NCBI GenBank assembly: GCA_963931495.1
Contig: OZ007020.1
Location: forward strand, 363,338-427,337
DNA length: 64,000 nt
From: an uncultured Alphaproteobacteria bacterium
GTDB lineage: Bacteria > Pseudomonadota > Alphaproteobacteria > Rs-D84
Direction: 5' to 3'
Shown: in pieces, positions 1,520 to 29,704 of the stretch
Layout of the letters: the number at the start of each line of letters is the position of its first letter
Position numbering within the stretch: the first letter of the stretch is position 1
Program-made: the position numbers and the translations under genes
Notes under the pieces: model-generated
Seen by the model: only the letters and a program-made list of their open reading frames with translations
Told to the model about the DNA's origin: nothing
Database searches by the model: none

Positions 1520-2983
1520 ATGAAAAAACTGCTTAATACGTGGATATTTGTTTTTTTTGTGTGTGTTTGTTGTGATGTGATGGCCCAGGCTGTTGTTGGG
1601 GCTGGTGATGGGCCGGAGATTGTACAAGTCTGTCAGGTGAATTGTAGAGAAGTAAAACCAGTGGATGACCCAAATTGGGTTTGTTCAGAGGCGGGGGTCA
1701 CTTGTACAGCGGGATGCTACAAAAATCCTTACGAGGCCGAGGATGGAACACAGACAGCAAACTGTCAGGCGTGTGGTATTGGAACGTATATTGAATCCCC
1801 TGACCACGTCAGTCCGGCGTGCGATGATTGCAAGAAACCAGACAATGTTGCAAATACGGTTGTTAATTTTGTTGAAGATTCGGCGGACGTATTAAATCCA
1901 GATGTTAAGGATTGTACAGAGGATGGTTCTAATAATTCGTCATGTATATTAACTGGGCGTACATTAGAGTACGGATGTCCATGGATGGTAACGTGCGAAG
2001 ATGGATATTTTTGGAATGGCAGCCAATGTTCAAACTGTACCAAAGGATACGAAGGAAATGGAAAGACGTGGACCATGGTTGCAACTGGGAATAAGTTGTC
2101 TGGCATCGCAAAGGATAATCGGTTAGAACGTTGTATCGGTATTGAATATACGATATCTTTACAAACAAATACATCGTATGCCGCGAATATAACGCCGGTT
2201 GCCAGTGGGATGCCAACGTCGGATGAATATAAAGACAAAAGCGTCGTTTTTAAGTTTGGCAGTGGATTTAAGAACGGAAGCAGCCATACAACAACGTTGC
2301 CCAGTTCGTATTTGCAGCCGTCAACGTCGTACTATACGTTAACGTTGCCCAGTTCGTATTTGCAGCCGTCAACGTCGTACTATACGTTTTTGGGGTATTT
2401 CAAAACGGCCGATGATTCAGAAGATACAACGCCTGTTATAAAGCCGGATGGCACGGGTCAAGGGGCGGAATCTGCGGATTTGCGTGATAATAATACACTG
2501 TACGCGCGATATGAAATACATAATACCAGTGTATGGTACATGGATAAAAAACCACAGTCGTGGGGGAACGCGCCTGCGACCAAGGCAGAAGTTGTGTTTA
2601 CTGTAAAGAATCCAGAAGCAGACAGAAAGGTAAAGGCGTTGCCCAGCAATTGGTATCTGGATGGGAAAATTTTTGATTACTATGAGTGTTATAATGTAAA
2701 AACTGGTGCGGCGTGCCAGGGTAAAGTTGAATACGATCCGGGTGAATCTTTGATATTTTCAGATGATTTGGAACGTGTTTTGATTCCGCATTATCACGAC
2801 TGTCCCAAGGGACACTATTGCCCAAAAGGTGTGGAAAAGGATTGCCCCGCCGGGTCAACCACAAACAGCACGGGCCAGTCGCAGATTACCAGTTGCGTTA
2901 TGAAACCAACCGACAGTGGAACGAAATTTGTTGATCAATACGGAACCTTTTATTTGCCCAGTAATTCTGATATACCGTATTAA
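1520..2983 (+). CDS. Secreted cysteine-rich protein with ephrin-receptor/TNFR-like CxxCPxGxYC repeats
   Basis: Signal peptide MKKLLNTWIFVFFVCVCCDVMAQA. Repeated motifs CQACGIGTYIESPDHVSPACDDC and CPKGHYCPKGVEKDCPAGSTTNS. Internal 16-aa tandem duplication. Confidence 0.5.
   Translation: MKKLLNTWIFVFFVCVCCDVMAQAVVGAGDGPEIVQVCQVNCREVKPVDDPNWVCSEAGVTCTAGCYKNPYEAEDGTQTANCQACGIGTYIESPDHVSPACDDCKKPDNVANTVVNFVEDSADVLNPDVKDCTEDGSNNSSCILTGRTLEYGCPWMVTCEDGYFWNGSQCSNCTKGYEGNGKTWTMVATGNKLSGIAKDNRLERCIGIEYTISLQTNTSYAANITPVASGMPTSDEYKDKSVVFKFGSGFKNGSSHTTTLPSSYLQPSTSYYTLTLPSSYLQPSTSYYTFLGYFKTADDSEDTTPVIKPDGTGQGAESADLRDNNTLYARYEIHNTSVWYMDKKPQSWGNAPATKAEVVFTVKNPEADRKVKALPSNWYLDGKIFDYYECYNVKTGAACQGKVEYDPGESLIFSDDLERVLIPHYHDCPKGHYCPKGVEKDCPAGSTTNSTGQSQITSCVMKPTDSGTKFVDQYGTFYLPSNSDIPY
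2293..2388 (+). repeat. Perfect 48-bp tandem duplication (x2) inside the CDS, encoding TLPSSYLQPSTSYYTL twice
   Basis: aacgttgcccagttcgtatttgcagccgtcaacgtcgtactatacgtt occurs twice, back to back. Confidence 0.8.
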
Positions 2984-3106
2984 TTGATTTGATGTCCGTG
3001 GACTGTGTATTATATAACTTGACAACGTGGCGTTTTGTGCAACAATTGTAGTACGAATCGGGGAGCGGGTCAGAGAATACGTAAAGTTTGATAAAGGACA
3101 CGAAAT

Positions 3107-3502
3107 ATGAAAAAAGTTCTGGTTTCCGCAATTGCATTGACCGCTTTGACCGGATGCAGCGCATATTATGACTACTATAAGGGCGGCGTCAGATATACCC
3201 AAGATGGGCAAGATTGTATCTATTACGCCGGCGAATATGGACGTAATTTTTCCCAGTATGTCAGTGGTATTGATAATGGCAAAAAGATTGTCTATCGCAA
3301 CACACGGTGTGAAGACCTGTATGCGCGCGATACGTTTGGTTTGCCACAACGTAATGAACGCCAGGTTCTGGCCCCGGCGGCCCAAGAAGTGTCGTGCACA
3401 CAATGTGGTGCGTGTGGTGCCGAAACTGTTTCTTGCGGATGCGATTCTTGCGGTGCCCAGCCGGTTCTGAAACGCAGATATGTCATCGTTCCGGCGATGT
3501 AA
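3107..3502 (+). CDS. Small lipoprotein with a Cys-rich C-terminus
   Basis: MKKVLVSAIALTALTGCSAYY contains a lipobox (LTGC). C-terminus CTQCGACGAETVSCGCDSCG. Confidence 0.45.
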   Translation: MKKVLVSAIALTALTGCSAYYDYYKGGVRYTQDGQDCIYYAGEYGRNFSQYVSGIDNGKKIVYRNTRCEDLYARDTFGLPQRNERQVLAPAAQEVSCTQCGACGAETVSCGCDSCGAQPVLKRRYVIVPAM

Positions 3503-3633
3503 AGCAAACCAGATTTCGTTGACTTTTGGCGGCAATGCCGATGCTGTTCGGTGTTGCCGCTGTGTTTTTATCTTGCTTGAATCATGCGTGTTTTTGTGAT
3601 ACAATTGCTGTAACAGGTTAAAAGGGGATTCAT

Positions 3634-4014
3634 ATGAAAAAATTATTAAAGATTTTGGGTGTTGCTGGTATCATCGCAACCGTCGGTGCCGGCGGGGCAA
3701 TGGCGGTCGCGGCGGGCGGTGTCGGTGTTAATGATTCCGGACTGTGCATGTTAATCGGGCAAATGTATGGCGTGTTCAAAATATTACGTACGTTGGCGTT
3801 TGTTGGGGCTGCGTTCATTATCGCTGGATGGGCATGGACATATATTTCCAAAGGCAAGGTTGAAATGGAGGACCTGAAAGCCAAAGGTACAGGCATGTTG
3901 GTCGGGTTCGTATTGTTGTTTGGTATCGGTATTGTGTTACAGTTCTTCTTGTCATCAGCCGGGTTGGGGATGATTGGATGCGAAAATGTAATACTGCAAT
4001 GGGGATTGAATTAA
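3634..4014 (+). CDS. VirB2/TrbC-like type IV secretion pilin candidate (small protein with a signal peptide and two TM helices)
   Basis: Long signal peptide MKKLLKILGVAGIIATVGAGGAMA. The mature part NDSGLCMLIGQMYGVFKILRTLAFVGAAFIIAGWAWTYISKGK...MLVGFVLLFGIGIVLQFFL resembles the VirB2 arrangement (..NNICTFILGPFGQ..IGISWMFGR..hydrophobic helix 2). Confidence 0.35.
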   Translation: MKKLLKILGVAGIIATVGAGGAMAVAAGGVGVNDSGLCMLIGQMYGVFKILRTLAFVGAAFIIAGWAWTYISKGKVEMEDLKAKGTGMLVGFVLLFGIGIVLQFFLSSAGLGMIGCENVILQWGLN

Positions 4015-4042
4015 AAAAACGGCCAAATGGCCGTTTTTTATT
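4014..4042. terminator. Bidirectional Rho-independent terminator between convergent genes
   Basis: aaaaaaacggccaaatggccgtttttta. Confidence 0.6.
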
Positions 4043-4094
4043 GTTCTGGCGTAAATACCCCGGGCGTGGGCCCAAGGAATTATTTATTTTATTT

Positions 4095-5045
4095 TTATCG
4101 CTGTAAAACCTGGGGCGCGAATTGTTGAATAAATTTTTGTTCCGCGTTTTTGAATTCACGCGATATATTGGTGACTGATTTTTTGAATATGTCTTGTTCT
4201 GGGGCGATTCCAGTCTTTTGTATCATGCGAACGCGTGCAGACACCAGTTCTTCGTATAATATATCGGCAAAACGTTCAAATCGCATATGTGGGGTCGTGT
4301 CCCATGTGGCAATGGCGTTGCATATGCCCCGCCGGCGTGACAGTAATGACTGGGCCCCCATATAATTTGACAGTGGGTCATTGTCGTATATCGGAATGTC
4401 GTGACCGATTTTGATGTCGTTTGCGTCGCGACCATAGAAAAACGCACGGTGCATATAATAATGAAAATGGCGCATGTTGGCATGATTACGATGGGCAATG
4501 CCGTTGACCATGTGTTCTGCGCGTGCCAATTCATCACGCAATGATATGCGGGCGTATTGGTATGTTTGGTTGTATATATCACCGAATGTCGCGTTCGGCA
4601 TCATAAAATATGTCTGGGTGAATATCTGGCGTGGCCATTGACGCATTATTGACCAGCATGCATATCGGGTTAATTTGGCGTCTGGGGCGTTTGTTTTGTT
4701 TATTGTCTGGTTGCCGTCATTGATTTGATAGTTGTTATGTATCGTCGCAATGTGACCAGTATAGAAATTATAAAAGTTTTGCGGAATACGTTCGTTATCT
4801 GAATTATGTCGGCGGATTTTTTCAAATGTTTTGCGATTAATTGCGTCGCGACCAATTGTGTCAATGTCGTCGTGGTGACCCATGTATAATGGACCAAATA
4901 AATTATATAAATCAGAAAATAACCAATATTCGCATTCGGATGTTATGGCGGCGCCAGAAAACAGGGTGGGGGGATTATCGTCATATGTGCTGTGGGTGCA
5001 ACGATTCAATTGATTGTAAATATTTTCAGATTTTTCGTGTGCCAT
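4095..5045 (-). CDS. Hypothetical protein (316 aa), no recognisable family
   Basis: Long ORF flanked by terminators. Its codon usage is consistent with its neighbours. Confidence 0.4.
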   Translation of the reverse strand: MAHEKSENIYNQLNRCTHSTYDDNPPTLFSGAAITSECEYWLFSDLYNLFGPLYMGHHDDIDTIGRDAINRKTFEKIRRHNSDNERIPQNFYNFYTGHIATIHNNYQINDGNQTINKTNAPDAKLTRYACWSIMRQWPRQIFTQTYFMMPNATFGDIYNQTYQYARISLRDELARAEHMVNGIAHRNHANMRHFHYYMHRAFFYGRDANDIKIGHDIPIYDNDPLSNYMGAQSLLSRRRGICNAIATWDTTPHMRFERFADILYEELVSARVRMIQKTGIAPEQDIFKKSVTNISREFKNAEQKFIQQFAPQVLQR

Positions 5046-5067
5046 TTTTTGTCCCCTGGGGTGATTA

Positions 5068-5310
5068 TTATTTTTGTTCTTCTATGTTCGCCAATGAAAA
5101 CAAAACAGACGAAATCAATGATTGGTATGGGACGTGTTGTTGATCGGCCAATTGTTTTATGCGTTCCAAAATCTGGTGCGGAATGCGCATGTTTATCACA
5201 CTGTCAGATTTATTAAATGCGCGATATGCCGCATATTCTTTCAGTAAAGATTCTATGTTCATTATGAACAGTTGTTGCATTACGTTTGGCATACACAACC
5301 CCCTATACAT
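5068..5310 (-). CDS. BrnA-like ribbon-helix-helix antitoxin with no adjacent BrnT toxin gene
   Basis: C-terminal INMRIPHQILERIKQLADQQHVPYQSLISSVL matches the BrnA RHH signature (..LRLPeel...lk..A...GiPYQtlI..). The true start may be the internal Met at 5262. Confidence 0.45.
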   Translation of the reverse strand: MYRGLCMPNVMQQLFIMNIESLLKEYAAYRAFNKSDSVINMRIPHQILERIKQLADQQHVPYQSLISSVLFSLANIEEQK

Positions 5311-5512
5311 ACGGCAATACCGCCGTCTTTACAACGAACTATACCATTGTATTGGCATTTGTCAATACATTTGTAATTGCGGGTGTATGCACGGGTGTGA
5401 TGGCGTTTGTAGGGGCGTGTGTGTGACACTGTTTTTGGGGCGCAAAATCTTGCTTTTTATGTTTTGCGCATATAAAATTATTGTGTCTTTTGTTCGCAGG
5501 AAAGGTTCAGAT

Positions 5513-6832
5513 ATGATAAAGAAAATAATCTTTGGTGTGATGGCCGTAATGATGATTGCGTTTCCGGTCCATGCAGAAATCAAGGTTGATATTATTGCAA
5601 ATGCAGCCGAACCAATATCGGTCGCAGTTCAGAAAATTGAACCCGTTGGTGATGTTGATGCAGACGATCTGGAAATGATACGTGATGTTGTTGATGCAGA
5701 TTTGAAATCAACCGGACTGTTTCGTATTGTGTCGCGTGATGCGTTGCCTGAATTTGTAAAAATGGGAAATATGCCTGATTTTGAACTGTGGGATGCGGTG
5801 CGTGCCCAAGTTCTGGTCCAGGCAAAATTGGCCGCGGAATCTGGGGGGCGGTACAGTTTGGAATTTTATGTATGGGATGTAAATGGCCGTGAACAGATAG
5901 AAGCACAGAGTTTGGTCGCATCACGTAAATCTGTGCGGCGGTTGGCGCATATTATGGCGGATGCAATTTATGAACGTCTGACCGGTGAAGTCGGATATTT
6001 TGATACGCAAATTGTATTCATTGCGGAAACAGGACCTGTTGGTAACAGAATAAAGCGGATGGCAATAATGGACCAAGATGGTCATGGAATGCGATATTTA
6101 TCAGATGAAGATACTTTTGTTATGTCGCCCCATTTTTCGCCGAATATGCAAACAATTGTGTTTTTGTCTTTCCGTGATGATGATCCAATGGTCTGGACGC
6201 TGGATTTGGAAACAGGGGAACAGCGTCGGTTGGGCCAATTTGGCGGGATGAACTTTGCCCCGCGGTTTTCGCCAGATGGTACTAAAATTGCACTGTCGTT
6301 GGTTAAAAACGGCATAACGCACATATATGAATACGACATTGAGTCAAAAAAGTTGCGTCAATTAACCTTCGGGCGTTCGCTGAACACCAGTCCGTCTTAT
6401 TCCCCAGATGGTAAAAAAATGGCTTTTAATTCTGATCGCAGTGGTAACCAGCAAATTTATGTGTTGGATCTGGAATCAGGGGATGTGGAACGTATAACAT
6501 ATGGGGCTGGGCGATATGCAACCCCGGCATGGTCCCCAGATGGGCAATTTATCGCATTTACAAAAATTGCCGACGATACGTTCTATATTGGCATTATGAA
6601 TCCGCGGGGACGTAATGAAAAAATATTGGCCGGTGGATGGTATATGGAGGCCCCATCCTGGGCCCCGGGTTCACGGCGTCTGGTGTATTATGAAACAGAA
6701 AAGGCACTGGATGGTATTGAACGTATCAGTCATATTCGCAGTGTGGATATTACCGGACAGAATATATATGATATTGAATTGCCAGATGGTATAAATGGGG
6801 TTGAACCAACGTGGTCACCAAAGTTGCCCTAG
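5513..6832 (+). CDS. tolB: Tol-Pal system beta-propeller protein TolB
   Basis: Signal peptide MIKKIIFGVMAVMMIAFPVHA, a TolB N-domain and repeated FSPDG / SPDG propeller motifs. The ORF track began it at 5159, a spurious 5' extension. Confidence 0.8.
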   Translation: MIKKIIFGVMAVMMIAFPVHAEIKVDIIANAAEPISVAVQKIEPVGDVDADDLEMIRDVVDADLKSTGLFRIVSRDALPEFVKMGNMPDFELWDAVRAQVLVQAKLAAESGGRYSLEFYVWDVNGREQIEAQSLVASRKSVRRLAHIMADAIYERLTGEVGYFDTQIVFIAETGPVGNRIKRMAIMDQDGHGMRYLSDEDTFVMSPHFSPNMQTIVFLSFRDDDPMVWTLDLETGEQRRLGQFGGMNFAPRFSPDGTKIALSLVKNGITHIYEYDIESKKLRQLTFGRSLNTSPSYSPDGKKMAFNSDRSGNQQIYVLDLESGDVERITYGAGRYATPAWSPDGQFIAFTKIADDTFYIGIMNPRGRNEKILAGGWYMEAPSWAPGSRRLVYYETEKALDGIERISHIRSVDITGQNIYDIELPDGINGVEPTWSPKLP

Positions 6833-7224
6833 GGCTGGGGATTTCATTGATATCGGGCGTGGCATATGCGATGCCGGCGGTTGTTGACTATGTGATTGAC
6901 GGCGATACGTTTGGCGCACATGTGTTGGTAAGTGACGATATCAATGTTGATGTGCGTGTACGAATCGCAAATATTGATGCCCCAGAAATTCATGGTCGGT
7001 GTGAATTTGAAACGATGTTGGCACACCGGGCCCGTGACCGGTTGGCGGAATTGTTGCCAATTGGTGAATCCGTTGATTTAACAGATGTTCGTGATGATAA
7101 ATATCTGGGGCGTATTGACGCCCGTGTTATTCATGCAAAACATGGCGACGTTGGCCGCGTTATGATGACAGAAAATTTAGCGCGCAAATATGATGGCGGG
7201 CACCGTGATGGATGGTGTGATTAA
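6811..7224 (+). CDS. Staphylococcal-nuclease-like (SNase/thermonuclease) secreted nuclease
   Basis: VIDGDTF...VRIANIDAPE...YLGRIDARV pattern typical of the SNc fold. Carries a signal peptide. Occupies the position where pal normally follows tolB. Confidence 0.55.
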   Translation: MVTKVALGLGISLISGVAYAMPAVVDYVIDGDTFGAHVLVSDDINVDVRVRIANIDAPEIHGRCEFETMLAHRARDRLAELLPIGESVDLTDVRDDKYLGRIDARVIHAKHGDVGRVMMTENLARKYDGGHRDGWCD

Positions 7225-7235
7225 GTGCACAGTTA

Positions 7236-7415
7236 ATATATTACTTGCAAAACTACTATAAAACCAGTACCGAATGCAAAGAATGTCCATCGCCAGGTAC
7301 CAGTGATAACAATAATTCAAATGGAATTACAGATTGTTATATCCCGGCGGGTACCACCGGCAGTGATTCAACCGGTTCGTTTATGTATGTATCTGATTGT
7401 CATTATTCAAATTAA
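7236..7415 (+). pseudogene. C-terminal gene fragment of the ephrin-receptor-like Cys-rich secreted protein family, with no start codon
   Basis: Open frame IYYLQNYYKTSTECKECPSPGTSDNNNSNGITDCYIPAGTTGSDSTGSFMYVSDCHYSN*. It resembles the C-terminus of the 17423..18298 protein (CTPCPSHSSGT...ECYVIPNKFTGSDTTGS). It is only 59 codons long and lacks both an ATG and an RBS. Confidence 0.35.
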
Positions 7416-7441
7416 AATCCCGCAATATGCGGGATTTTTTA
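7414..7441. terminator. Bidirectional Rho-independent terminator
   Basis: aaaatcccgcaatatgcgggatttttt. Confidence 0.6.
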
Positions 7442-8146
7442 TGCACTGTGGCGGTTGATGGCCGCAGATATTTCGTCCAATGATGCGTTACAAGGTAACA
7501 TGGGTTCAAACCATACATTTGCCGTGCCTGGGCGCATTTTTCCACGCTTTGGCCAGTACAGTCCCGTATCTGTTCCAACCGGTAATATTGGTAATTTTAA
7601 TTCATGGGCCAGAAATAACAAACCGCGTTTTAATTTTACTTTTTGTCCCGGCTTTGCACGTGTGCCTTCGGGGAATATTATCAGTACCATGCCGTCCATA
7701 ATCTTTTTTGCCACGGCGTTTGTTAATTTATGCATGTTTGTTGCACCACGTGCACGATTTACCGGCTGTAACCCCATGCGCCAAAATGCCCATCCGTAAA
7801 TCGGAATCCACAATAATTCGCGCTTTATTATAAAAAATGCATGTGGCAATTTGGTTGTTAATATCGCAACTTCCAGTATGGACATGTGTTTTGCGGCAAC
7901 AATCGCTTTGCCATCCAGACGTATGTTTCCGTTTGGGGTCATTGGGATACCATTTTCTTCGTTTGGTGGAAAATGCAATGTGTACTTTATCCCAGCGACC
8001 AATCGGGCAATGCCCAGCACACCGCGCGCGCATGTGCGTATTAAAAAACGTATTAATGATTTGGATATTAACCCAATTAACAAAATCGGTGACCATAAAA
8101 CAAAATACAGTCCCAGTGTAATTTTGAAAAGAATTGTTCTGAACAT
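7439..8146 (-). CDS. plsC: 1-acyl-sn-glycerol-3-phosphate acyltransferase (PlsC family lysophospholipid acyltransferase)
   Basis: LIIFPEGTR motif and a KHMSILEVA (HX4D/E-like) motif. N-terminal TM segment. The ORF track extends to 8200, overlapping the upstream gene. Confidence 0.6.
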   Translation of the reverse strand: MFRTILFKITLGLYFVLWSPILLIGLISKSLIRFLIRTCARGVLGIARLVAGIKYTLHFPPNEENGIPMTPNGNIRLDGKAIVAAKHMSILEVAILTTKLPHAFFIIKRELLWIPIYGWAFWRMGLQPVNRARGATNMHKLTNAVAKKIMDGMVLIIFPEGTRAKPGQKVKLKRGLLFLAHELKLPILPVGTDTGLYWPKRGKMRPGTANVWFEPMLPCNASLDEISAAINRHSA

Positions 8147-8168
8147 TACTGTTTTTTCCTTTTGATTA

Positions 8169-8678
8169 CTATCGTTCTTTGATTCCGCAAAGTGTTGCAA
8201 TGTATTTTATATATTCTGTGGCCCATCTTTCAAGTCTTTTTGCAGGCGGCATCCCAGATAATGGTACCGGGCATGCGATTATTTCTGAATCTGGAATTTC
8301 ATGTTGTATCAAGTGACGCGCGCGATTCATGTGGTCTTCGGTTGTAATTAAAACGATCCTGTCCAGTCCAGTGCGTGTCGCAATTTTTTTTATTGCCAAT
8401 GCATTTTGATATGTTGATTCTGATTCGGATTCAATCGTTACACGACGGTTTATTTCATATGAACCATCATCGCCCGCACCAATGATATACAGGTCTGTAT
8501 TTGGATATGTGCGTAATTTACGCATTGCAAACGGAATGCGGCGCATGTCACCGGTTAATACAAAAATACTGTCGTCTGGCAATATTTCGTTACACTGTGA
8601 CGGTGTAGAAAACTTAAACGCCATTCCACCAATCGCAACGCATGTCAGAAGTAATAAAGACGATGTTAATAATCTCAT
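8169..8678 (-). CDS. Periplasmic DUF218 (YdcF/ElyC/SanA-like) domain protein
   Basis: Signal peptide MRLLTSSLLLLTCVAIGG. Core IVLITTEDHMNRARHLIQHE...YIIGAGDDGSYEINR resembles DUF218. Confidence 0.4.
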   Translation of the reverse strand: MRLLTSSLLLLTCVAIGGMAFKFSTPSQCNEILPDDSIFVLTGDMRRIPFAMRKLRTYPNTDLYIIGAGDDGSYEINRRVTIESESESTYQNALAIKKIATRTGLDRIVLITTEDHMNRARHLIQHEIPDSEIIACPVPLSGMPPAKRLERWATEYIKYIATLCGIKER

Positions 8679-9514
8679 TCTTCGTTTTTAAGAATATTCA
8701 ATGTTGTGCGTTTTGTCATCCAAATTGCGAATATTATTATAACAATTGGCAATAATAACAATGTAATCCATCCCGCCCCAGATATGTCCAACATTGCCAT
8801 TAACCCAACGCGTGCACTGTGCGCGGTTGACAGTATTAACAGTAATACTGGGGCCGCAACAACAAATCCAATTCCACCCGCAATTGTACATATTTTTGCA
8901 ATAATAATTTGCATCTGGTGGGCAACATATGCGTCTGTGGCGCCAATTTGGTTTAATATTTCCAGTTCGCGTCGGTGCAACAATGCCATATTACGTGTGA
9001 TATACGATATGCACAGACCAATTGCCCCCAGGGTCAGCACTAATACAAACGATGCAATCAGAATCATTTTCCATCCGGCCGATGTTGATGCGTTTAACGC
9101 ATCGGCATGTGTTAAAAAACGCGCATATTTTGATATCTGGGGGCCGATTTGTTCCATGGCATCGGTTGTGGTAAATTCAACTTCATACATTTTTGGCAGA
9201 TAGTTTTCCAATGCCCCACCGCCAGAAATCCATGGCCGCATTAAATCACGCATTTGTTCAGTTGTTATTTCTGTGACATGGGTTATTTTGTCAGTGTTTT
9301 CATCAAAAATCTTTTTTACATTTGCTGTATTATCAGTATCCATAATCTGGACAGTGGCGTATAAATCCCATTGCGAATTCCAGCGAATAACCCCCGTGCC
9401 AATTGCCAATGACATGCCCAATGCAATTACCGCCAGAAAAGTTAATAACGACATTATTGCCGTCATGAAAACGGATTGGTCTTTGATTACAGAAAATACA
9501 ATGGGCTTTTTCAT
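8675..9514 (-). CDS. ftsX: FtsX-like ABC transporter permease (4 TM segments, periplasmic loop between TM1 and TM2)
   Basis: Topology and size fit FtsX (TM1, ~100-aa loop, TM2-4). Translationally coupled to the upstream ATPase (stop/start at 9514/9515). Confidence 0.55.
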   Translation of the reverse strand: MKKPIVFSVIKDQSVFMTAIMSLLTFLAVIALGMSLAIGTGVIRWNSQWDLYATVQIMDTDNTANVKKIFDENTDKITHVTEITTEQMRDLMRPWISGGGALENYLPKMYEVEFTTTDAMEQIGPQISKYARFLTHADALNASTSAGWKMILIASFVLVLTLGAIGLCISYITRNMALLHRRELEILNQIGATDAYVAHQMQIIIAKICTIAGGIGFVVAAPVLLLILSTAHSARVGLMAMLDISGAGWITLLLLPIVIIIFAIWMTKRTTLNILKNEE

Positions 9515-10318
9515 TTATGCGTTTCCGATGTCATCAAATTGTTTTGATAATTCTGTGAAGTAATTTTGTGGTTTGGGGCCTTTCCACAACTTTTTTCCAA
9601 TGTTTTGTGTTGTTGATTGACCGGCGGCCTTGGTGGGTGCGCCGTTTGTAAAACTGACCCGGTGATTTTCAACACGAATAACAGGGTATTTATATGTTTC
9701 TATTAATTTAGTGCTGTGTGTGGCCAATATAATTGTTGTGCCAAATGCACGATTCATTTGCACAAACAATTCCATCAGGCGTGACGCGTTTTCGTCGTCC
9801 AGATTGCCCGTCGGTTCGTCGGCCAATAATATTGCCGGCTGGATAATAATTGCACGCGCAACGGATACACGTTGCTGTTGACCGCCAGACAGTTCGCGCG
9901 GGTTGGCATTGGCATATTTGCCCAATCCGACCCATTCCAGTGTTTTGGATACCAGTTTCTGTATCTTGGATTCTGGAAAGTTTCGTACCCGCAGTGGTAA
10001 CGCAATGTTATCAAACACAGACATATGTGATAACAGTGAATATTCTTGGAATACAATTGCCATTTTGTGACGCAGTTTTGCAATCTCGTCCCGCGTCATA
10101 TCATTGGTTATGTGACCAAATAATTTAATCTGGCCCCGGCATGGTTTGTGTAATTGATATATTAAACGCAGTAACGTTGTCTTGCCCGCACCAGATGCCC
10201 CAGATAAAAAGTAAAATCCGCCAGAACTGATATTAAATGATACATCAGACAGTATTTCGTGCGTGTCATCATAACGCGCACCAACATTGGCAAAAGATAT
10301 CGCAGTGTTATCTGGCAT
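9515..10318 (-). CDS. ftsE: FtsE-like ABC transporter ATP-binding protein, with a ~40-aa C-terminal extension
   Basis: Walker A GASGAGKTTLLRLI, ABC signature LSGGQQQRVSVARAI, Walker B ILLADEPTGNLD. Confidence 0.7.
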   Translation of the reverse strand: MPDNTAISFANVGARYDDTHEILSDVSFNISSGGFYFLSGASGAGKTTLLRLIYQLHKPCRGQIKLFGHITNDMTRDEIAKLRHKMAIVFQEYSLLSHMSVFDNIALPLRVRNFPESKIQKLVSKTLEWVGLGKYANANPRELSGGQQQRVSVARAIIIQPAILLADEPTGNLDDENASRLMELFVQMNRAFGTTIILATHSTKLIETYKYPVIRVENHRVSFTNGAPTKAAGQSTTQNIGKKLWKGPKPQNYFTELSKQFDDIGNA

Positions 10319-10438
10319 GATAAAAAATCATAGTAAAAAAATTTTTTTCGGTCAAGTTGCACAAAATATAAATTTATTATTTGGAATGAATGCTTATTTG
10401 TGATATAGTTACAGTAAATTTTATGGAGTTATGGAAGG

Positions 10439-11182
10439 ATGAAAAAAATAATTTCTTTTGCTGTGTTGGCTGGTTTGTCTGTGTCTGCGTATGCGGCACC
10501 GATGTATCCAACGTATGTATCCAGTAATTCGTATGTTGATGCGAATTACAGCGGTGACAGTCTGTACAGATATGCCGACCGTGAAAAAACAAATTGGTAT
10601 GCCACAATTCGTGCCGAATTGGCTTTGTTGAATTGGACGAATACGTATTCAATGCAAGAAACTGCACCAACAGATGCGGGATTTGGCGGGGATAAATATT
10701 CACTGGAACCGGTGTTTGGTGGCAACTTGGCGGTTGGTCATAAGTTTACAGATGCATGGCGTGCGGAACTGGAAGCCGGCTATATCGGATATTTTTCTGA
10801 TACTGATCCGATTTCACACTTTACAATGCAGATTCCGTATTTAATGGTGAATGGATTTTATGATTTTCAAAATGGATTTTATCTGGGGGCGGGCGTTGGT
10901 GTGTCGCTGGTTATAACAGAAATTGATACGTTGATGTCTACGCCGGAAAATCGCTATAACACCGGGGCATCGCCAATGGGGGCGGTTATGTTGGGTTATG
11001 CGCTGGAACTGGGTAATGATTTTGTTCTGGATGTGCGGTACAGATTGTCTGGGATGATGGGGGACCAGCATCGTTTCTATCCGACAGAACTGTTTGATGG
11101 CAGTGCAACGTTCTGGGTGCAAAATGAAATTGGATTCATACTGGATAATTCACTGTCGGTCGGGTTGCGATATGAATTTTAG
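10439..11182 (+). CDS. Small outer-membrane beta-barrel protein (porin/OmpW-like paralog family)
   Basis: Signal peptide MKKIISFAVLAGLSVSAYA. Alternating hydrophobic beta-strand pattern. C-terminal ...GLRYEF with a terminal Phe. Confidence 0.5.
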   Translation: MKKIISFAVLAGLSVSAYAAPMYPTYVSSNSYVDANYSGDSLYRYADREKTNWYATIRAELALLNWTNTYSMQETAPTDAGFGGDKYSLEPVFGGNLAVGHKFTDAWRAELEAGYIGYFSDTDPISHFTMQIPYLMVNGFYDFQNGFYLGAGVGVSLVITEIDTLMSTPENRYNTGASPMGAVMLGYALELGNDFVLDVRYRLSGMMGDQHRFYPTELFDGSATFWVQNEIGFILDNSLSVGLRYEF

Positions 11183-11194
11183 TATAAAATGCTG

Positions 11195-11224
11195 TTGACC
11201 CGATTCGGACATTTGTGATATCAT
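11195..11224 (+). promoter_or_regulatory. Candidate sigma70 promoter (TTGACC-18-TATCAT with a TG extended -10) upstream of the fibre-protein array
   Basis: ttgacc cgattcggacatttgtga tatcat, 20 nt upstream of the ATG at 11245. Confidence 0.3.
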
Positions 11225-11244
11225 TAAACAGGTAGAGAGAATTT

Positions 11245-13062
11245 ATGAAAAACACGTTTGGCATTTCAACATTAGCAATCACATTGGCCATAGGGGCATT
11301 TGTGTGTGACGCAAATGCGGCGGCAACTGTTCGGGCATTGGGGGGCAGTGGAACGTATTCCAGTGCATCCAGTGCATCGTCTGGTTCGTCGGCCACAACA
11401 CGGGGCAGTTCGGTCAGTGTTGCACCGGTGGCCAGTTCTGGGTCGTCGGGCGTCGCGGCAACCGGTGGTGGAACAACCACGGGGCGGGTTTCAACAATGC
11501 CACGTCTGTCGTTGGGCAGTTATTTGACCGGTGCAATTAATTCCAGTGGCGGAATGCTGCGGCCGGTGGTGTCGGGTGATGATTCTTCGTCGTCTGGTTC
11601 GGGGTCTGGGTCAACAGGTGGTAATATGACCCCCGGGGCATCCGCGGAAATTATCAAGGAAATTGACCGGTTGCATTCAGATGTGGAAAGTTTGCGCGCA
11701 TCAGATGAAAGTCTGTTGGAAAGCATGGATGCCAAGCAGGATGTTTTGGTTCCGACCGAAGATGGGTATGTTGTTATTGACAATAATGAAATCTTTTTGG
11801 ACGTTGAAAATTTAAGTAATGCATTAGAAGAACTGGTTGATGATGGTCGTGAAGTAGAAATTGATTATGATGGCGAATATGTTGTTTGGCGTTATGTCGG
11901 TGATGCAGTGTGGAATAATTTGATATCCAAGGAAGATATTACCGGACCCCAAGGACCCGAAGGACCCCAAGGTCCCCAGGGCGAGGCCGCCAATCTGGAC
12001 GCATATTCAACAACAGAACAGATGAATTTTGCAATTGCAAATGCAATTGGTGCGCTGGCTGAAATATACGCAACGAAAACAGAATTAACAAAGTATCCGA
12101 CGTCTGATACTGTGGCGGCAACATACGCGACCAAGGCGGAATTGGCGAAATATCCAACCGCGGATACGGTTGTTGCAACCTATGCAACCAAGGAAGAGTT
12201 AAAGAACTATCCCACGTCTGAAACAGTATCGGCAACATATGCAACAAAAACAGAGTTGGCGACCAAGGCAACGACCGAGGCACTGGAACGTGGATTGGCG
12301 GCCAAGGCAGATGCCGCGGCATTGGATAACTATGTTAAAACAGGAACACTGACCCAGTATTATTATGACAAGGCCGGGGTTGATAATCGTATATCTGAAA
12401 TTGTGTCGGGGGATTTAAGTACTGCGTTGACACAATATGTTAAAACAGAAGATATGAATACGGCATTGGCGGGCAAGGTTGATAACGAAGATATGGTCAA
12501 CTATGCAACGGTTGCAACGGTTGATACCAAGGCGGATAAAACAGCGGTGGAATCGTTGGCACTGACGGTTGCAGATGTTGATACAGTCGCAACATCGGCG
12601 GCCCAGGGTGTTGATACGGTGTCTGATTTGGTGGATGAGGTTATTGGGCATGTAAAACAGAATAAAACGGCAATTGGAAATATGCAGACTGTCGTAGGGG
12701 CGGGGGAATTGTCAACCGAAGCGCGAACAATCGTGGGGGCCATCAATGAAATAACAGGTCGGGTGGACGATTTACCAACACAGAGCAATTTCCAAGAAGT
12801 TAATCAAGCTATCACCAGCATAGAAAATGCATTGGAAACCAAGGTTGAAACGACCGAATTAAATGAAATCGCCTTTACCGGCCAGATTACAAATGAAAAT
12901 GTGGCGGAAAATGCGGGGATTTCACGTATTAAATTATCATCGGATGTTCAAGATTCTTTGGATCGTGCCGATGAAGCGGTGGTTGTTGATGGTATCGGTT
13001 CAAATCGTATCTTGGGAACAGACGACGCCGGTCAAGAAACGTGGTACGAAATTGTTATGTAA
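11245..13062 (+). CDS. Secreted phage-tail-fibre-like / collagen-like repeat protein (array member 1, 605 aa)
   Basis: Signal peptide. Ser/Gly-rich linker. Collagen triplets GPQGPEGPQGPQGE. Four tandem YATK(T/A/E)EL(T/A/K)KYPT(S/A)DTV repeats. Ala-rich coiled-coil segments. Confidence 0.5.
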   Translation: MKNTFGISTLAITLAIGAFVCDANAAATVRALGGSGTYSSASSASSGSSATTRGSSVSVAPVASSGSSGVAATGGGTTTGRVSTMPRLSLGSYLTGAINSSGGMLRPVVSGDDSSSSGSGSGSTGGNMTPGASAEIIKEIDRLHSDVESLRASDESLLESMDAKQDVLVPTEDGYVVIDNNEIFLDVENLSNALEELVDDGREVEIDYDGEYVVWRYVGDAVWNNLISKEDITGPQGPEGPQGPQGEAANLDAYSTTEQMNFAIANAIGALAEIYATKTELTKYPTSDTVAATYATKAELAKYPTADTVVATYATKEELKNYPTSETVSATYATKTELATKATTEALERGLAAKADAAALDNYVKTGTLTQYYYDKAGVDNRISEIVSGDLSTALTQYVKTEDMNTALAGKVDNEDMVNYATVATVDTKADKTAVESLALTVADVDTVATSAAQGVDTVSDLVDEVIGHVKQNKTAIGNMQTVVGAGELSTEARTIVGAINEITGRVDDLPTQSNFQEVNQAITSIENALETKVETTELNEIAFTGQITNENVAENAGISRIKLSSDVQDSLDRADEAVVVDGIGSNRILGTDDAGQETWYEIVM

Positions 13063-13083
13063 CAGAGCAGAATGGGAACGTAA

Positions 13084-14247
13084 ATGAAAAATAAAAAAAT
13101 TGTTTTTTGTGGATTTGCGGCGACATTACTGATGGCGGGTACCGCGAATGCGGCGGTGAAAATTGCCAGCCAAGAATACGTTGATCGTGTTGATAATGTT
13201 ATCGCGGAAAGCGTTGATTCTGTTCAGACCCAGGTTACAGAATTGGATACCGTTGTTAATGACCCGGATACAGGGCTGGTTAGTGGGGTTGCGGATTTAC
13301 AATCCCAGATTTCGGGCAAGCAAGATGTTGCGAATTTAACCCAGACCATAAATGATGAATCCCAGGAAACACAATATCCATCGGCGGCGGCGGTTAATAC
13401 GGCAATCAAAGATGCAACAACAGGACTGGTTGGCAGCGAAGATTTAGAAGATTTGGCCGGTGATGTAAATGCGCTGAACACAAATGTTATCCAGTTGCAA
13501 TTTGATGTAAAGTCAAAACAGGATTCTTTGAATGATAATCAAATGAATGCGGTGAATTCTGGGATTACTGCGGACAAGGTTACACAGTATGATGAATATG
13601 CAACCCAGATTGCGGCCAAGCCAGACGCAGCATCGTTGGCAACAGTGGCAACAACAGGATCATATAATGATTTGAAAGATGCGCCGGCACCGATTGTCGT
13701 TGATGCGACGTTAAGTGCAGAAAGTACAAATCCGGTTCAAAATAAAGTTATTAATGCCGCATTGGCAACCAAGGCCAGTACCCAGGATGTTTCTGATATC
13801 GCCGAAGATGTGACGATATTGGAATATCTGGTTAATAACGAAGATACAGGCTTGTCGGCCCAGGTTGCAGATATTGCTACCGCGGTTGAAACAGCGCAAT
13901 CGGGTGTTGATTCGTTGACACAAACAGTCGGTAATGCCGAAGGTGGACTGGTCAAAGATGTTACAGATTTGCAAGGCGATATGTCTGGCAAGCAAGATGT
14001 GGCAAGTCGTGAAAATACAATCACTGATGATGATACAAAATATCCATCATCTGGGGCGGTGTACGATGCGTTGGCAACCAAGGCTGATGTTGATGCAACG
14101 TATACCAAAGAAGAAACAGACAACCAAATCACTACATTGGCAATACCACGGCCAAGTGATGAATGTATGGCATCGTCAGGGGTGTGTGTGTTGTCGGTAA
14201 CCAGTTCTGGTGACTTTGCATGGGTTAATGTGGCGTATCCAGATTAA
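13084..14247 (+). CDS. Secreted phage-tail-fibre-like coiled-coil protein (array member 2, 387 aa)
   Basis: Signal peptide followed by IASQEYVDRVD. Motifs QYPSAAAVNTAI, ATTGSYNDLKDAPAP and KYPSSGAVYDALATKAD, which are typical of tail-fibre repeats. C-terminal Cys motif ECMASSGVCVL...WVNVAYPD. Confidence 0.5.
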   Translation: MKNKKIVFCGFAATLLMAGTANAAVKIASQEYVDRVDNVIAESVDSVQTQVTELDTVVNDPDTGLVSGVADLQSQISGKQDVANLTQTINDESQETQYPSAAAVNTAIKDATTGLVGSEDLEDLAGDVNALNTNVIQLQFDVKSKQDSLNDNQMNAVNSGITADKVTQYDEYATQIAAKPDAASLATVATTGSYNDLKDAPAPIVVDATLSAESTNPVQNKVINAALATKASTQDVSDIAEDVTILEYLVNNEDTGLSAQVADIATAVETAQSGVDSLTQTVGNAEGGLVKDVTDLQGDMSGKQDVASRENTITDDDTKYPSSGAVYDALATKADVDATYTKEETDNQITTLAIPRPSDECMASSGVCVLSVTSSGDFAWVNVAYPD

Positions 14248-14305
14248 TTTGGCTGGGGCAAAACAAAGAGATATAAAGAGAAAAAAATAAAACAGGAGAA
14301 AACAA

Positions 14306-15580
14306 ATGAAAAAATTAACCGCAGGTATATTTGCAACCTTATTAGCTGTTGTGTCGGTTGGTGCCGCACGCGCTGATATCGCGTCCAGCCAATATGTTGA
14401 TGACAAGGTTGATACCGTTGAAACATCTGTAACAACATTGTCTGGACGGGTTGATACCGCCGAAGAGGGAATTGAAACATTGGGAACAAAATTGGATGCC
14501 AAGTTGGATTCTGCAACAGCGGCCAGCACGTATGCAACCCAATCAGCATTAACAAGTGGTTTGGCGAACAAGCAAGATAAAGCACTGATTACATCAGCAG
14601 AATATGCGGAACATATATCCAGTGAAACAGGTTATCCATCTGTGGCGGCAGTAGAAGCGGCAATTGATGCGGCAACCGATGGGGTGGTTACCGATGTGTC
14701 GGACAAGGTTGATATTGCCCAGGGCGCTGGTGCCGCGAACAAGGCTGTTATTACTGGGGCGGATGGTAATATTACAACTGGTGAAGTTACCAGCGGCATG
14801 ATTGCAGATGGTACAATCGTTAATGCAGATATTTCCGCATCGGCGGCCATTGAGGCATCAAAAATTACAGGTCTGGGTGGTTTGGCCAGTCAAGATACTG
14901 TTGGTGCCGGTGATATTGAAGCGGGCGCAATCGTTAATGCAGATATTTCCGCGTCGGCAGCCATTGATCAATCAAAAATTAATGGATTAGAAGCATCGTT
15001 GGGTGCAAAAGAAAATGTTGCTAATCGTGTTACAACGACAACATGGAATGCAAACAAGAACAGTGATGAAATGTATCCGACAGCGGGTGCGGTCAATGCC
15101 GCAATTACAACCGCAACGTCTGGTATTACAACAGATATATCTGAATTGACGACCCAGGTTGAAGAAAATACCCAGGGTATCGCTGATAACGCAAGTGATA
15201 TATCAACCAATACATCGGCGATTGGTACTTTGACCAGTTTGACAACCACAGAACAAGGAAACTTGGTTGGTGCGATTAATGAAGTGGCCGGTGAGGTTGC
15301 GGATGTTTCGGGTGATATTGCATTAAAACAGAATATCACAGATAACACATTCACAACAGCGGCGAAGACGGTACCGGGTGCTGTTAATGAATTGAAAACC
15401 GCGGTTGATGCGGCCGCAGATGCGGCAGAAGCAGCCCAGACGGCGGCCGATGCCAAGATCCCAATGCCAAGTGGCGAATGCAGCAACCCAACAAACAAAT
15501 GCGTATTAGTATCAAATGGTACAAGTTCGTTTGAATGGGAAGTTGTTGCCCGTGGTGTGTCACCGGATGTTGGTGAATAA
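14306..15580 (+). CDS. Secreted phage-tail-fibre-like coiled-coil protein (array member 3, 424 aa)
   Basis: Signal peptide followed by DIASSQYVDDKVD. Motifs GYPSVAAVEAAIDAATDG and MYPTAGAVNAAITTATSG. Duplicated block GTIVNADISASAAIEASKITGLGG / GAIVNADISASAAIDQSKINGLEA. C-terminus GECSNPTNKCVLVSNGTSSFEWEVV. Confidence 0.5.
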   Translation: MKKLTAGIFATLLAVVSVGAARADIASSQYVDDKVDTVETSVTTLSGRVDTAEEGIETLGTKLDAKLDSATAASTYATQSALTSGLANKQDKALITSAEYAEHISSETGYPSVAAVEAAIDAATDGVVTDVSDKVDIAQGAGAANKAVITGADGNITTGEVTSGMIADGTIVNADISASAAIEASKITGLGGLASQDTVGAGDIEAGAIVNADISASAAIDQSKINGLEASLGAKENVANRVTTTTWNANKNSDEMYPTAGAVNAAITTATSGITTDISELTTQVEENTQGIADNASDISTNTSAIGTLTSLTTTEQGNLVGAINEVAGEVADVSGDIALKQNITDNTFTTAAKTVPGAVNELKTAVDAAADAAEAAQTAADAKIPMPSGECSNPTNKCVLVSNGTSSFEWEVVARGVSPDVGE

Positions 15581-15596
15581 TTTTACCGATAAGATT

Positions 15597-15628
15597 CTGT
15601 GTGTGATGCGTGGTGCGTCACACACAGA
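15597..15628. promoter_or_regulatory. Near-perfect 11-13 bp inverted repeat (TCTGTGTGTGA-N-TCACACACAGA) in the spacer between array genes 3 and 4
   Basis: tctgtgtgtgatgcgtggtgcgtcacacacaga. No T-run follows, so it is more likely an operator or RNA-processing hairpin than a terminator. Confidence 0.35.
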
Positions 15629-15698
15629 AGGATAAAAATGGGTATAAGTGGTGCGCAACGTAACGGTAATGTGAACATTTAGTTTTGTTTATGTAAAT

Positions 15699-16736
15699 GT
15701 GATGCTGAAAGTTAAAAATATTTTTGCTGTTTCTGTTATCGCGATAATGACAGTTGGCGGGGCGTTGGCTGATATTGCATCTGTAACGTATGTTGATGAT
15801 AAGTTCAGCACCGTTGAAACCGATGTTACGGGAAATGTCACAGGGGACGGGAATGTTGTAACCACAATTTCAGCCAGTGGTAACACGGTTACCGCGACCA
15901 AGGGAATAACCGCCGAAGAAATTAAAAACAAGGTTGAAAGCATTCGTGATTCTGGGACGGCAACAAACACGGCGTATCCATCAGAACGTGCGGTTGCAAT
16001 TGCGTTGGCGGTCAAGGCAGATTCCAGCACTGTTTCCGCAATGCAAAGTGATATAGATGCCGCCGGTGCCGCCGCCGCCGAGGCCAAAGAAGCGGCCAGC
16101 AGTGCAGAAAGTGCAGCAACAGAGGCATCAGAAGCCGCCGCCGCCGCCACCGCAGCGGTCGCGAACAAGGTTACGGCGAATGCCGCAATCACGGGTGGCA
16201 CAGCAACAAAAATTACATTTGATGCCAAAGGATTGGTTACGGGTGGGGCCAATTTGACCGCTGATGATATTCCAACGGTTCCAAGTACAAAAGTTTCGGG
16301 GCTGTCAACAGTCGCAACGTCGGGGTCGTATGATGATTTGACGGACAAGCCGTCTATCCCAGCGGCATATACTTTGCCGGCGGCGACATCGGCGGCGTTG
16401 GGCGGTGTTAAATCGGGCGGTGATATTTCTGTTTCCGCAGATGGTATTGTGACAGTCAGCAATGCTGCATCGGCGGACAAGGCGACAACGGCCACAACCG
16501 CAACGAATGCAACCAATGCAACAAATGCGACGAATGATGCCGGCGGTAATAATATTGCGAGTACGTATGCAACCAAGTCGCAAATAACGGCATTGAACAG
16601 TTCATCCACAGGTACGGGTGCCGTTGTGACCGCTGTGTCACAATCAGGTGGCAAGGTTTCAGTGACCAAGGGCAATGTTCAAATTCCTGTGGGCAGTGCG
16701 ACCGGAACATCGTATGCCACGATATGGGTTGAATAG
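15699..16736 (+). CDS. Secreted Ala-rich coiled-coil protein (array member 4, 345 aa)
   Basis: Signal peptide followed by DIASVTYVDDKFS. Motifs AYPSERAVAIALAVKAD and VATSGSYDDLTDKPSIPAAYTLPAATSAALGGVK, a classic tail-fibre motif. Also TATTATNATNATNATND. Confidence 0.5.
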   Translation: MMLKVKNIFAVSVIAIMTVGGALADIASVTYVDDKFSTVETDVTGNVTGDGNVVTTISASGNTVTATKGITAEEIKNKVESIRDSGTATNTAYPSERAVAIALAVKADSSTVSAMQSDIDAAGAAAAEAKEAASSAESAATEASEAAAAATAAVANKVTANAAITGGTATKITFDAKGLVTGGANLTADDIPTVPSTKVSGLSTVATSGSYDDLTDKPSIPAAYTLPAATSAALGGVKSGGDISVSADGIVTVSNAASADKATTATTATNATNATNATNDAGGNNIASTYATKSQITALNSSSTGTGAVVTAVSQSGGKVSVTKGNVQIPVGSATGTSYATIWVE

Positions 16737-17345: not shown

Positions 17346-17422
17346 TGCCCCGATTTATAACATGTGTTGGGGATGTTAATGTTTATTAATCATTGCTGAT
17401 AATATGCATTTTTATCACACGC

Positions 17423-27486: not shown

Positions 27487-27563
<77 letters not shown>

Positions 27564-27571
27564 TAAGTTTT

Positions 27572-27600
27572 TTGTGCGCCGTGGTGGCGTTTTTATTTTT
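27572..27600 (+). terminator. Rho-independent terminator after the tRNA
   Basis: gtgcgccgtggtggcgtttttatttttt. Confidence 0.5.
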
Positions 27601-27643
27601 TGTAATTTGCATTCGTTTTTTTATCTGTAATAATATGTATGCT

Positions 27644-28657: not shown

Positions 28658-28723
28658 AAAGTCGTCATTTATTAAAAAAATTAATAATTTATTTATTTAA
28701 TAATGGCGTGTATCAATGTAATA

Positions 28724-28750
28724 AAAATGCCGCATTTATGCGGCGTTTAT
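28724..28750 (+). terminator. Terminator-like hairpin
   Basis: aaaaatgccgcatttatgcggcgtttatc. The T-run is weak. Confidence 0.35.
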
Positions 28751-29685: not shown

Positions 29686-29704
29686 TAAATACCGGACTGC
29701 TTTA

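Follow-up and report, generated by a model that had tools for sequence, protein, structure and literature searches.

Within a 64,000-nucleotide stretch of the genome of an uncultured alphaproteobacterium of the Rs-D84 lineage (contig OZ007020.1, positions 363,338 to 427,337; hereafter the window), two genes for cysteine-rich proteins, A and C, show allelic hypervariability that is limited to part of the protein, occurs in near-identical genomes and is accompanied by mosaic recombinants. This strain variability, together with the recombination that goes with it, is the main new result and the strongest feature of the region; it was missed by the initial annotation, a reading of the letters of the window that had pointed to cysteine repeats of ephrin-receptor/TNFR (tumour necrosis factor receptor) type at four loci. 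The coordinates of these loci and the motifs quoted for them are correct as judged by reading the open reading frames (ORFs): A (487 aa from an MKK start) has CQACGIGTY and CPKGHYCPKG, B (291 aa) has CTPCPSHSSGT, C (188 aa) has CTQCPKNSYCPGG, and D is an open frame of 56–64 codons, depending on whether it is counted from 7221 or 7245. All four are rich in cysteine (5–8%, against mostly 0–1.8% in 21 ordinary long ORFs of the window). We think it somewhat probable that A, B, and C are Sec-exported, disulfide-stabilised, strain-variable proteins with a candidate function in binding or at the surface. The parts of A and C, and the variable genes that precede A, are as follows.

1520–2983, + strand: gene A, with signal peptide, N-terminal cysteine-rich part, central cysteine-poor part, and C-terminal cysteine module plus conserved tail
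1520–1591, + strand: predicted Sec signal peptide of A, residues 1–24, MKKLLNTWIFVFFVCVCCDVMAQA (KD10 3.3, AQA site)
1592–2134, + strand: hypervariable N-terminal cysteine-rich region of A, residues 25–205, 16 Cys
2135–2800, + strand: central part of A, residues 206–427, near-invariant except for an indel-prone segment at ~238–316
2801–2980, + strand: C-terminal Ephrin_rec_like-type module and conserved tail of A, residues 428–487, CPKGHYCPKG..CPAGSTTNSTGQSQITSC..GTKFVDQYGTFYLPSNSDIPY
31421–31987, + strand: gene C, 188 aa, with signal peptide, TNFR/ephrin-receptor-type cysteine-rich modules, and conserved tail without cysteine
31480–31630, + strand: hypervariable patch of C, residues ~21–70, in the first cysteine module
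465–920 and 950–1426, + strand: a pair of small lipoprotein genes, paralogues of each other (lipobox ...AVSSC), immediately preceding A

Allelic variation and recombination in genes A and C

The DNA of the window is 88–99% identical to contigs of relatives, in which A is syntenic and adjoins the tolB region. Two such contigs, L001 and L002, share 98.3% identity with the window over positions 2129–12983 and have no nucleotide similarity to it over ~1567–2129, that is, over the N-terminal cysteine-rich region of A. When identity is plotted in steps of 100 bp, three discrete variable patches are seen, namely the mature parts of the two lipoproteins and residues 1–205 of A, with an upstream background (positions 1–600 and 900–1100) that is 95–100% identical. 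In the lipoproteins the signal/lipobox regions are 95–100% identical between near-identical strains and the mature parts 45–80%; these genes have no Pfam match and belong to the same variable island as the N-terminus of A, outside the cysteine-rich family. At the level of the A protein, identity is 15–42% in the first 200 alignment columns and 90–100% in the last 150. Over residues 25–205 of A, synonymous divergence (dS) is 2.2 and nonsynonymous divergence (dN) is 0.77, compared with a dS of 0.025 for TolB; because dS is saturated, the A variants are old alleles acquired via recombination and not the product of recent point mutations. Each of the two A alleles is found in two independent assemblies (one in the window and L003, the other in L001 and L002), and the protein P0002 is a mosaic of both allele classes, which indicates recombination.

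A similar pattern is seen in C, for which the hypervariable patch is 47–79% identical to its counterparts in L014 and L015, compared with 97–100% immediately upstream; relative to L014, the patch has 13 nonsynonymous and 2 synonymous changes. In the comparison with L015, dS is 0.006 for the outer-membrane protein gene that precedes C and for the 5' end of C itself, and 0.48–0.76 for rpsL and fusA on the other side, so a recently exchanged block ends inside C. Over both loci, identity is 98–100% in the flanks and 15–60% in the N-terminal region of A, the patch of C, and the two lipoproteins. It should also be noted that L014 is 98.4% identical to the window over positions 27510–31988, diverges from it at the C stop codon (L014:4485), and continues into DksA and thioredoxin genes rather than rpsL, which marks the breakpoint of a rearrangement or else a chimera in the assembly of L014.

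A diversity-generating retroelement and phase variation were both considered as sources of the variation and rejected, given that the variable segments contain indels and saturated synonymous change and that a frame-shifting repeat is absent. No frame-shifting simple-sequence tract is present in these genes, and Tandem Repeats Finder detects only one duplication, in A: an exact 48-bp tandem copy at 2293–2388. It lengthens the protein by 16 residues (TLPSSYLQPSTSYYT repeated), and the orthologue P0001 (93% identity) lacks it.

Domain type and fold

Gene C passes the Pfam gathering cut-off for Ephrin_rec_like (PF07699; 31.2 vs 23.1 bits, E = 1.9e-7), with two matching stretches, and has sub-threshold matches to NCD3G and TNFR_c6 (PF00020; 18.4 vs a cut-off of 29.4 bits). 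A profile of the C family matches human ELAPOR1 (E = 3e-7), followed by mastigoneme Mst1, 4-1BB, and EphA2. The AlphaFold2 (AF2) model of C has a mean confidence (predicted local distance difference test, pLDDT) of 79 and matches almost only the cysteine-rich domains of TNFR, Eph, ELAPOR1, and CaSR; the closest solved or viral structures are TNFRs, viral TNFR homologues (CrmE and the iridovirus and adomavirus TNFRs), ELAPOR1, and Eph receptors. The model thus points to a TNFR/Eph-type cysteine-rich fold for C. Most of the 49 C homologues carry a precomputed PF07699 match; the number of modules varies among them, and two tail alleles are shuffled (in C itself, the tail spans residues ~150–188, GRILHIGEYVLYLRTAKLTSPALHVKIGDVIYYGDAFPA). 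C is sited among outer-membrane beta-barrel-like genes and upstream of rpsL, an adjacency that is also seen in relatives, some of which have paralogous C-type genes plus proteins of 668–1670 aa built of the same modules, with 50–94 Cys. Such large proteins are found at L009:1888–6900, L010:4480–6486, and L011:3577–6870, in metagenome-assembled genomes (MAGs) of relatives that include Candidatus Enterousia sp.; those of L010 and L011 end in a longer form of the C-family tail (DDCGRILHI...), the printed C-terminus of the L009 protein is without it, and the L011 protein has a Flg_new-like segment as well.

Gene A is more divergent. There is no Ephrin, TNFR, or VSP Pfam match to A at E ≤ 1, and the same is true of its four syntenic orthologues (58–93% identity), except for one Ephrin_rec_like match at E = 0.84. 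A profile built from A and these orthologues and searched against 1.84 billion representatives yields 68 proteins, most of which, among the members that were aligned or read, have the architecture of A from its residue ~150 onward. Sixty-six of the 68 are unnamed metagenome proteins where looked up, and most of those inspected have either the A-type architecture or its C-terminal module; the other two are named eukaryotic proteins, one of them a spurious chitin-binding repeat. The A profile matches the Ephrin_rec_like repeats of clam SCUBE2 (E = 3.7e-5) over A positions 417–454. Within the family, 15 of 32 aligned members match Ephrin_rec_like at E ≤ 1, and two relatives pass its cut-off: P0084 (23.8 bits) in the region equivalent to the N-terminal part of A and P0103 (27.7 bits) in the C-terminal module, over model positions 13–48. 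The C-terminal module of P0092 and P0089 maps to the same model positions, and TNFR_c6 is matched at E ≤ 1 by 4 of the 32 members (best E = 0.0053). Based on the Pfam matches of the relatives and on the SCUBE2 match, A carries divergent Ephrin_rec_like-type modules at both ends; as judged by its sequence, A itself is not a recognisable Ephrin_rec_like member. The ephrin-receptor/TNFR-type repeats of the initial annotation are in this way borne out for C, by Pfam, and for the C-terminal module of A, through its relatives; A and B are not recognised by Pfam as they stand, and of the Pfam families that had been proposed, Ephrin_rec_like is found for C, TNFR_c6 stays below threshold, and VSP is not seen at E ≤ 1. 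With C a Pfam member and A relatives matching Ephrin_rec_like, assignment to an unrelated bacterial cysteine-rich fold is not what the searches returned.

All 18 proteins that are matched through the C-terminal module of A alone carry it at most 20 residues from their C-terminus, and among relatives the conserved C-terminal module is joined to varied N-terminal parts. In the KFCD..GCF tail that follows it, the two cysteines are present or absent together across the A family, as expected of a disulfide pair. The AF2 model of A, made with five sequences, has a pLDDT of 29.7, and a sequence search of the PDB with A profiles gives nothing (profile A1) or sub-significant TNFR/Eph matches with E = 0.1–0.4 (profile A5). 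In the central part, the motifs Y.I.L..N ... F.GY ... LYA.W resemble the Flg_new repeat (PF09479, cut-off 27 bits); no Flg_new match is found in A, relatives are sub-threshold (17.9 bits for P0092 and 16.1 bits for P0123), and P0118, which shares the C-terminal module of A, has an above-threshold match (34 bits) in a region that does not align with A. The central part possibly consists of Flg_new-like beta domains.

Likeness to eukaryotic receptors could also mean that A, B, and C are recent, eukaryote-derived host-mimicry effectors, that is, secreted decoys or ligands for TNF-family or ephrin-type partners, comparable to the viral TNFR homologues. Published proteins with this type of domain are overwhelmingly eukaryotic, with sporadic bacterial cases read as horizontal gene transfer (HGT) (PMC6993872), the nearest solved and viral structures are those listed above for C, and the organism is one of animal guts. 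Against this, no eukaryotic protein matches over an extended collinear stretch; similarity is about 20–30% over single modules, and about 30% over 35–48 residues; only 2 of 68 A-profile matches are named eukaryotic proteins, including the spurious one; and the families are diversified and syntenic within a bacterial lineage, with a Flg_new-like middle and lineage-specific tails that make for a bacterial architecture. We consider host mimicry of this kind very improbable, and the transfer from eukaryotes that the initial annotation had raised has no support in these comparisons.

Relationships among the loci

The N-termini of A, B, and C have a hydrophobic core (KD10 2.8–3.7) followed by AQA, FSA, and YGA sites, respectively, as judged by inspection and hydropathy. 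This pattern of core and cleavage site is kept across the three families (the signal segments of A-family members end in similar A-x-A motifs) and fits putative Sec signal peptides. A Sec signal peptide had been assigned to all four loci; the assignment is plausible for A, B, and C and falls for D, which is without an N-terminus. The mature proteins have even numbers of cysteines (22 in A, 20 in B, and 14 in C).

The four loci had also been taken for members of one family, and here the initial annotation went too far. No significant similarity among A, B, and C is seen in pairwise BLASTP, apart from short matches at the C-terminus in which D takes part; hidden Markov models (HMMs) of A, B, and C, each built from its orthologues, miss the two remaining full-length proteins of the window; hhalign with shallow family profiles gives uninformative probabilities of 4–21%; and none of the four proteins has a match in NCBIfam. 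Direct profile comparison of A and B with hhalign gives a probability of only 54%. The B-family HMM matches D with E = 6e-9 over the last 39 B-family positions, and an HMM of the C-terminal part of the A family matches D with E = 2e-7; as D matches the C-terminal module of both, it is a relic of that module and bridges A and B. With a deeper profile of the A family, the C family is matched at a probability of 96.9% (E = 1e-10), and an A-family HMM built without the window sequence matches C with E = 1e-7, about half of the latter score coming from the signal peptide. When the signal peptide is removed, the same HMM matches mature C with E = 0.003 (12.9 bits, compared with 7.6 bits for the best of 1000 shuffles), and we have set the stronger A–C values aside for this reason. 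Because the links among A, B, and C are only profile-level or transitive, we describe the loci as three separate families plus a fragment, which appear to be loosely held together by one shared cysteine module type and do not make up one tight family.

It is also conceivable that there is no family at all and that unrelated cysteine-rich exported proteins have come to share short CxxCPxG-like strings through composition or convergence. The insignificant BLASTP results, the shallow hhalign values, the share of the signal peptide in the A–C score, and the fact that B has neither a Pfam match nor a direct significant match to A or C would all be explained, and the window does hold other, unrelated cysteine-rich proteins (positions 53190–62167, see below). 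What speaks against chance resemblance is that D matches both the C-terminus of B and the C-terminal module of A at the E values given above, that the A module maps to Ephrin_rec_like positions 13–48 in threshold-passing relatives, that C is a bona fide Pfam member, and that mature C outscores all 1000 shuffles. We hold this explanation to be quite unlikely.

Gene B and fragment D

The features of the two remaining loci are listed below.

17423–18298, − strand: gene B, 291 aa from Met16, with signal peptide, poly-Gly tract, and 20 Cys in the mature part
17390–17425, − strand: premature TGA of B and residual codons (11 codons: ACDKNAYYQQ plus the ancestral stop at 17392–17390)
7221–7415, + strand: fragment D, what remains of a B/A-type gene, namely of its C-terminal module, without start context or signal peptide
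7414–7440, + strand: terminator-like hairpin, CCCGCA-ATA-TGCGGG followed by T6, which starts at the last two bases of the D stop codon (7413–7415)

Gene B has a Shine-Dalgarno-like GGGAGA motif upstream of its start, an alternative start at 18343, and a C-terminal module that reads CTPCPSHSSG...ITECY..GSDTTGS. Neither B nor any of its seven homologues has a Pfam match to Ephrin_rec_like, TNFR, or VSP at E ≤ 1. The poly-Gly tract is encoded by GGT/GGC triplets and therefore stays in frame. At the position of the premature TGA, the orthologues P0071 and P0072 have TGG, and a conserved cysteine is lost as a result of the stop, which represents either a sequencing error or a real mutation. Among relatives, B-type genes are found in differing contexts, with other cysteine-module genes nearby. 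Fragment D scores 15.7 bits against Ephrin_rec_like (E = 0.013, sub-threshold) and is 99% identical in L001–L003, where it is not called as a gene. That one member is decaying, as first proposed, agrees with the remnant state of D, and B has its premature stop in addition.

Relatives and lifestyle

All homologues are metagenomic (4 for A, 7 for B, and 49 for C), and a GTDB scan with the C family returns gut MAGs labelled 'uncultured Alphaproteobacteria' together with Candidatus Enterousia sp. Enterousia, in the order Rs-D84, has genomes of less than ~1 Mb, lacks most biosynthesis, and is found in animal guts; it has been proposed that Rs-D84 bacteria depend on a partner and live as symbionts or parasites on other cells, from which they take metabolites, and many hypothetical membrane proteins have been noted in Rs-D84/Enterousia (PMC12306168). 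Together with the 88–99% DNA identity to contigs of relatives, the results of the scan suggest that the window belongs to this lineage. These gut-dwelling relatives with reduced genomes independently support host association, the lifestyle that the initial annotation had deduced from the repeats; host interaction on the part of the proteins is something that we infer rather than a result. A search of the literature on Enterousia/Rs-D84 and on bacterial Ephrin_rec_like or GCC2_GCC3 proteins found no description of these proteins, and IMG/VR contains no relatives of them. A phage origin has no support, given the IMG/VR result and viral fold matches that are TNFR homologues of eukaryotic viruses.

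Other features of the window

A perfect sigma-70 consensus (TTGACA-18-TATAAT) is located at 169–198, and no terminator-like site is found before 3527. Toward the other end of the window, tandem paralogues of ~958 aa (53190–56066 and 56081–58954, + strand) each carry a signal peptide, are rich in Ala, Thr, and Arg at the N-terminus, contain ~4% Cys, and end in ...EF; they show no credible Pfam match, the one sub-threshold hit being HCMV_UL116 (16.6 vs 30 bits). A 300-nt block is 97% identical between them (54123–54422 vs 56948–57247) and other parts are ~75% identical, which suggests gene conversion. They are followed by a third protein (60146–62167, + strand, 673 aa, 3.7% Cys), and on sequence grounds the proteins at 53190–62167 appear to be a different cysteine-rich exported family. 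An ORF that runs toward the window end (62614–63936, − strand) combines an OmpA C-terminal domain (55.6 bits) with a cysteine-rich middle (CPSNATGTYPNCVC...CDICPGD...CQCPAGT).

An outer-membrane beta-barrel-like gene at 28923–29685 (+ strand) has a frameshift near 29145 when compared with an intact 251-aa orthologue (L015:1175–1930) and is either a pseudogene or affected by a sequencing error. Positions 10439–16736 (+ strand) hold a run of lineage-specific exported or repeat-rich proteins, none with a significant Pfam match: one of 247 aa (sub-threshold OMP_b-brl, 24.3 vs 28.7 bits), one of 605 aa with 57-bp tandem repeats at 12066–12245, and further ones of 387 aa, 424 aa, and 345 aa, the last Ala/Thr-rich with ATN repeats. 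GC skew is positive in nearly all 2-kb bins (~+0.03 to +0.24, with one at −0.02) and most genes are on the + strand, consistent with a single replichore with strong strand bias. No DsbA or thioredoxin gene is present within the window.

Discussion

We suggest that A, B, and C are exported by the Sec pathway and oxidised in the periplasm to form rigid, elongated disulfide ladders of ephrin-receptor/TNFR-type modules, D being the relic of a fourth such gene. Periplasmic oxidation is suggested by the even cysteine counts, by the paired cysteines of the A tail, and by a DsbA-like gene that is present in one relative. The conserved C-terminal part (the Ephrin_rec_like-type module plus tail in A, B, and D, and the beta-strand tail in C) would keep the protein in the envelope or at its surface, or sort it; the N-terminal modules of A and C, the presumed membrane-distal ones, exist as alleles that have diverged deeply. 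Strains, and different lineages too, would exchange these alleles by homologous recombination in which the signal-peptide and C-terminal sequences, both conserved, act as anchors. The variable tips would be ligand-binding or antigenic surfaces, perhaps binding the surface of the host or of a partner cell, and may be subject to balancing or diversifying selection exerted by immunity, phage, or partner specificity.

Several points weigh against this explanation. A has no Pfam match, and its structure model stays at a pLDDT of 29.7. The similarity between A and mature C is weak (E = 0.003, 12.9 bits), and B is tied to the others only through D and the 54% hhalign match. The premature stop in B and the remnant D show that some members are dispensable. 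The high dS reflects imported old alleles, on which positive selection is not demonstrable, and the sole cases of a dN/dS ratio (omega) above 1 come from small counts (13 nonsynonymous to 2 synonymous changes, and 10 to 1). All comparison sequences are metagenome assemblies. Finally, placement at the surface is a matter of what we infer: a Sec signal alone takes a protein only to the periplasm, and no secretion system is tied to A, B, or C.

The last point leaves room for a structural role, in which A, B, and C would be periplasmic or outer-envelope proteins of a disulfide cross-linked layer, like the cysteine-rich envelope proteins of chlamydiae, and their variation would be due mainly to recognition by phages or predators and less to the binding of a host. 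The window is unusually rich in unrelated exported cysteine-rich proteins (the OmpA-type protein with its cysteine-rich insert and the two 958-aa paralogues), C lies among outer-membrane beta-barrel-like genes, and a Sec signal is the only export signal evident. On the other hand, TNFR/ephrin-type modules typically form elongated binding stalks, hypervariable N-terminal tips on conserved bases fit exposed binding or antigenic ends, and neither evidence of cross-linking nor relatives in IMG/VR are found, though the latter does not bear on phage pressure. We judge a structural layer to be unlikely and prefer exported, strain-variable binding or surface proteins. A bolder version, namely that Rs-D84/Enterousia-like bacteria have built a recombining surface coat of TNFR/ephrin-receptor modules, the tips of which set attachment to a host, protist, or bacterial partner or evade mucosal antibody, is speculative, and we would give it a chance well short of even; such a coat may be a bacterial counterpart of the cysteine-rich variant surface proteins of protists.

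Comparison with known systems suggests a likeness in fold to the eukaryotic Ephrin_rec_like/TNFR domains and a likeness in population behaviour to variable surface proteins. Eukaryotic proteins with PF07699 (formerly GCC2_GCC3), such as ELAPOR1, SCUBE2, the Eph receptors, and Chlamydomonas Mst1, have the module C..CP.G.Y....C..CP.G..S..G..S...C in common with the proteins described here and are extracellular, just as the present ones are predicted to be exported and disulfide-rich. The bacterial proteins are small by comparison: they contain one to three modules, start with signal peptides of bacterial type, and have tails peculiar to the lineage, and the middle of A is poor in cysteine. Transmembrane, kinase, EGF, and CUB parts are absent, and A and B score below the Pfam threshold. 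Relative to the TNFR superfamily, including CrmE and the iridovirus TNFR, C scores below the TNFR_c6 cut-off and shows no sign of ligand-binding determinants or of trimeric-ligand recognition. The central motifs of A are similar to those of the Flg_new/Listeria-Bacteroides repeat (InlB B-repeat, PF09479), for which close A relatives score at best 17.9 bits, below the cut-off. In Giardia VSPs and other CxxC-rich proteins of gut protists, an exported, cysteine-rich, protease-hardy scaffold likewise joins a variable distal part to a conserved C-terminal part; the analogy would be functional only. Unlike Giardia VSPs, the proteins of the window have no VSP match at E ≤ 1, no transmembrane anchor, and no CRGKA tail, and their variation is allelic, between strains and by recombination, with no sign of a repertoire for switching within the cell.

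Sporadic bacterial Ephrin_rec_like proteins, such as Ilumatobacter YM304_37510, have been reported as putative HGT (PMC6993872) and likewise represent a eukaryote-type cysteine-rich domain in a bacterium. In contrast to such isolated cases, the present lineage of gut bacteria has several families, with synteny, paralogues, and allelic diversification, and it adds a diversified bacterial lineage to Ephrin_rec_like, which is usually treated as a eukaryotic domain with sporadic bacterial HGT. Rs-D84/Enterousia bacteria are widespread in the guts of humans and animals; the A-, B-, and C-type proteins offer concrete candidates for the molecules that mediate contact or recognition in the life of these bacteria, and the variable A- and C-type proteins could serve as strain markers.

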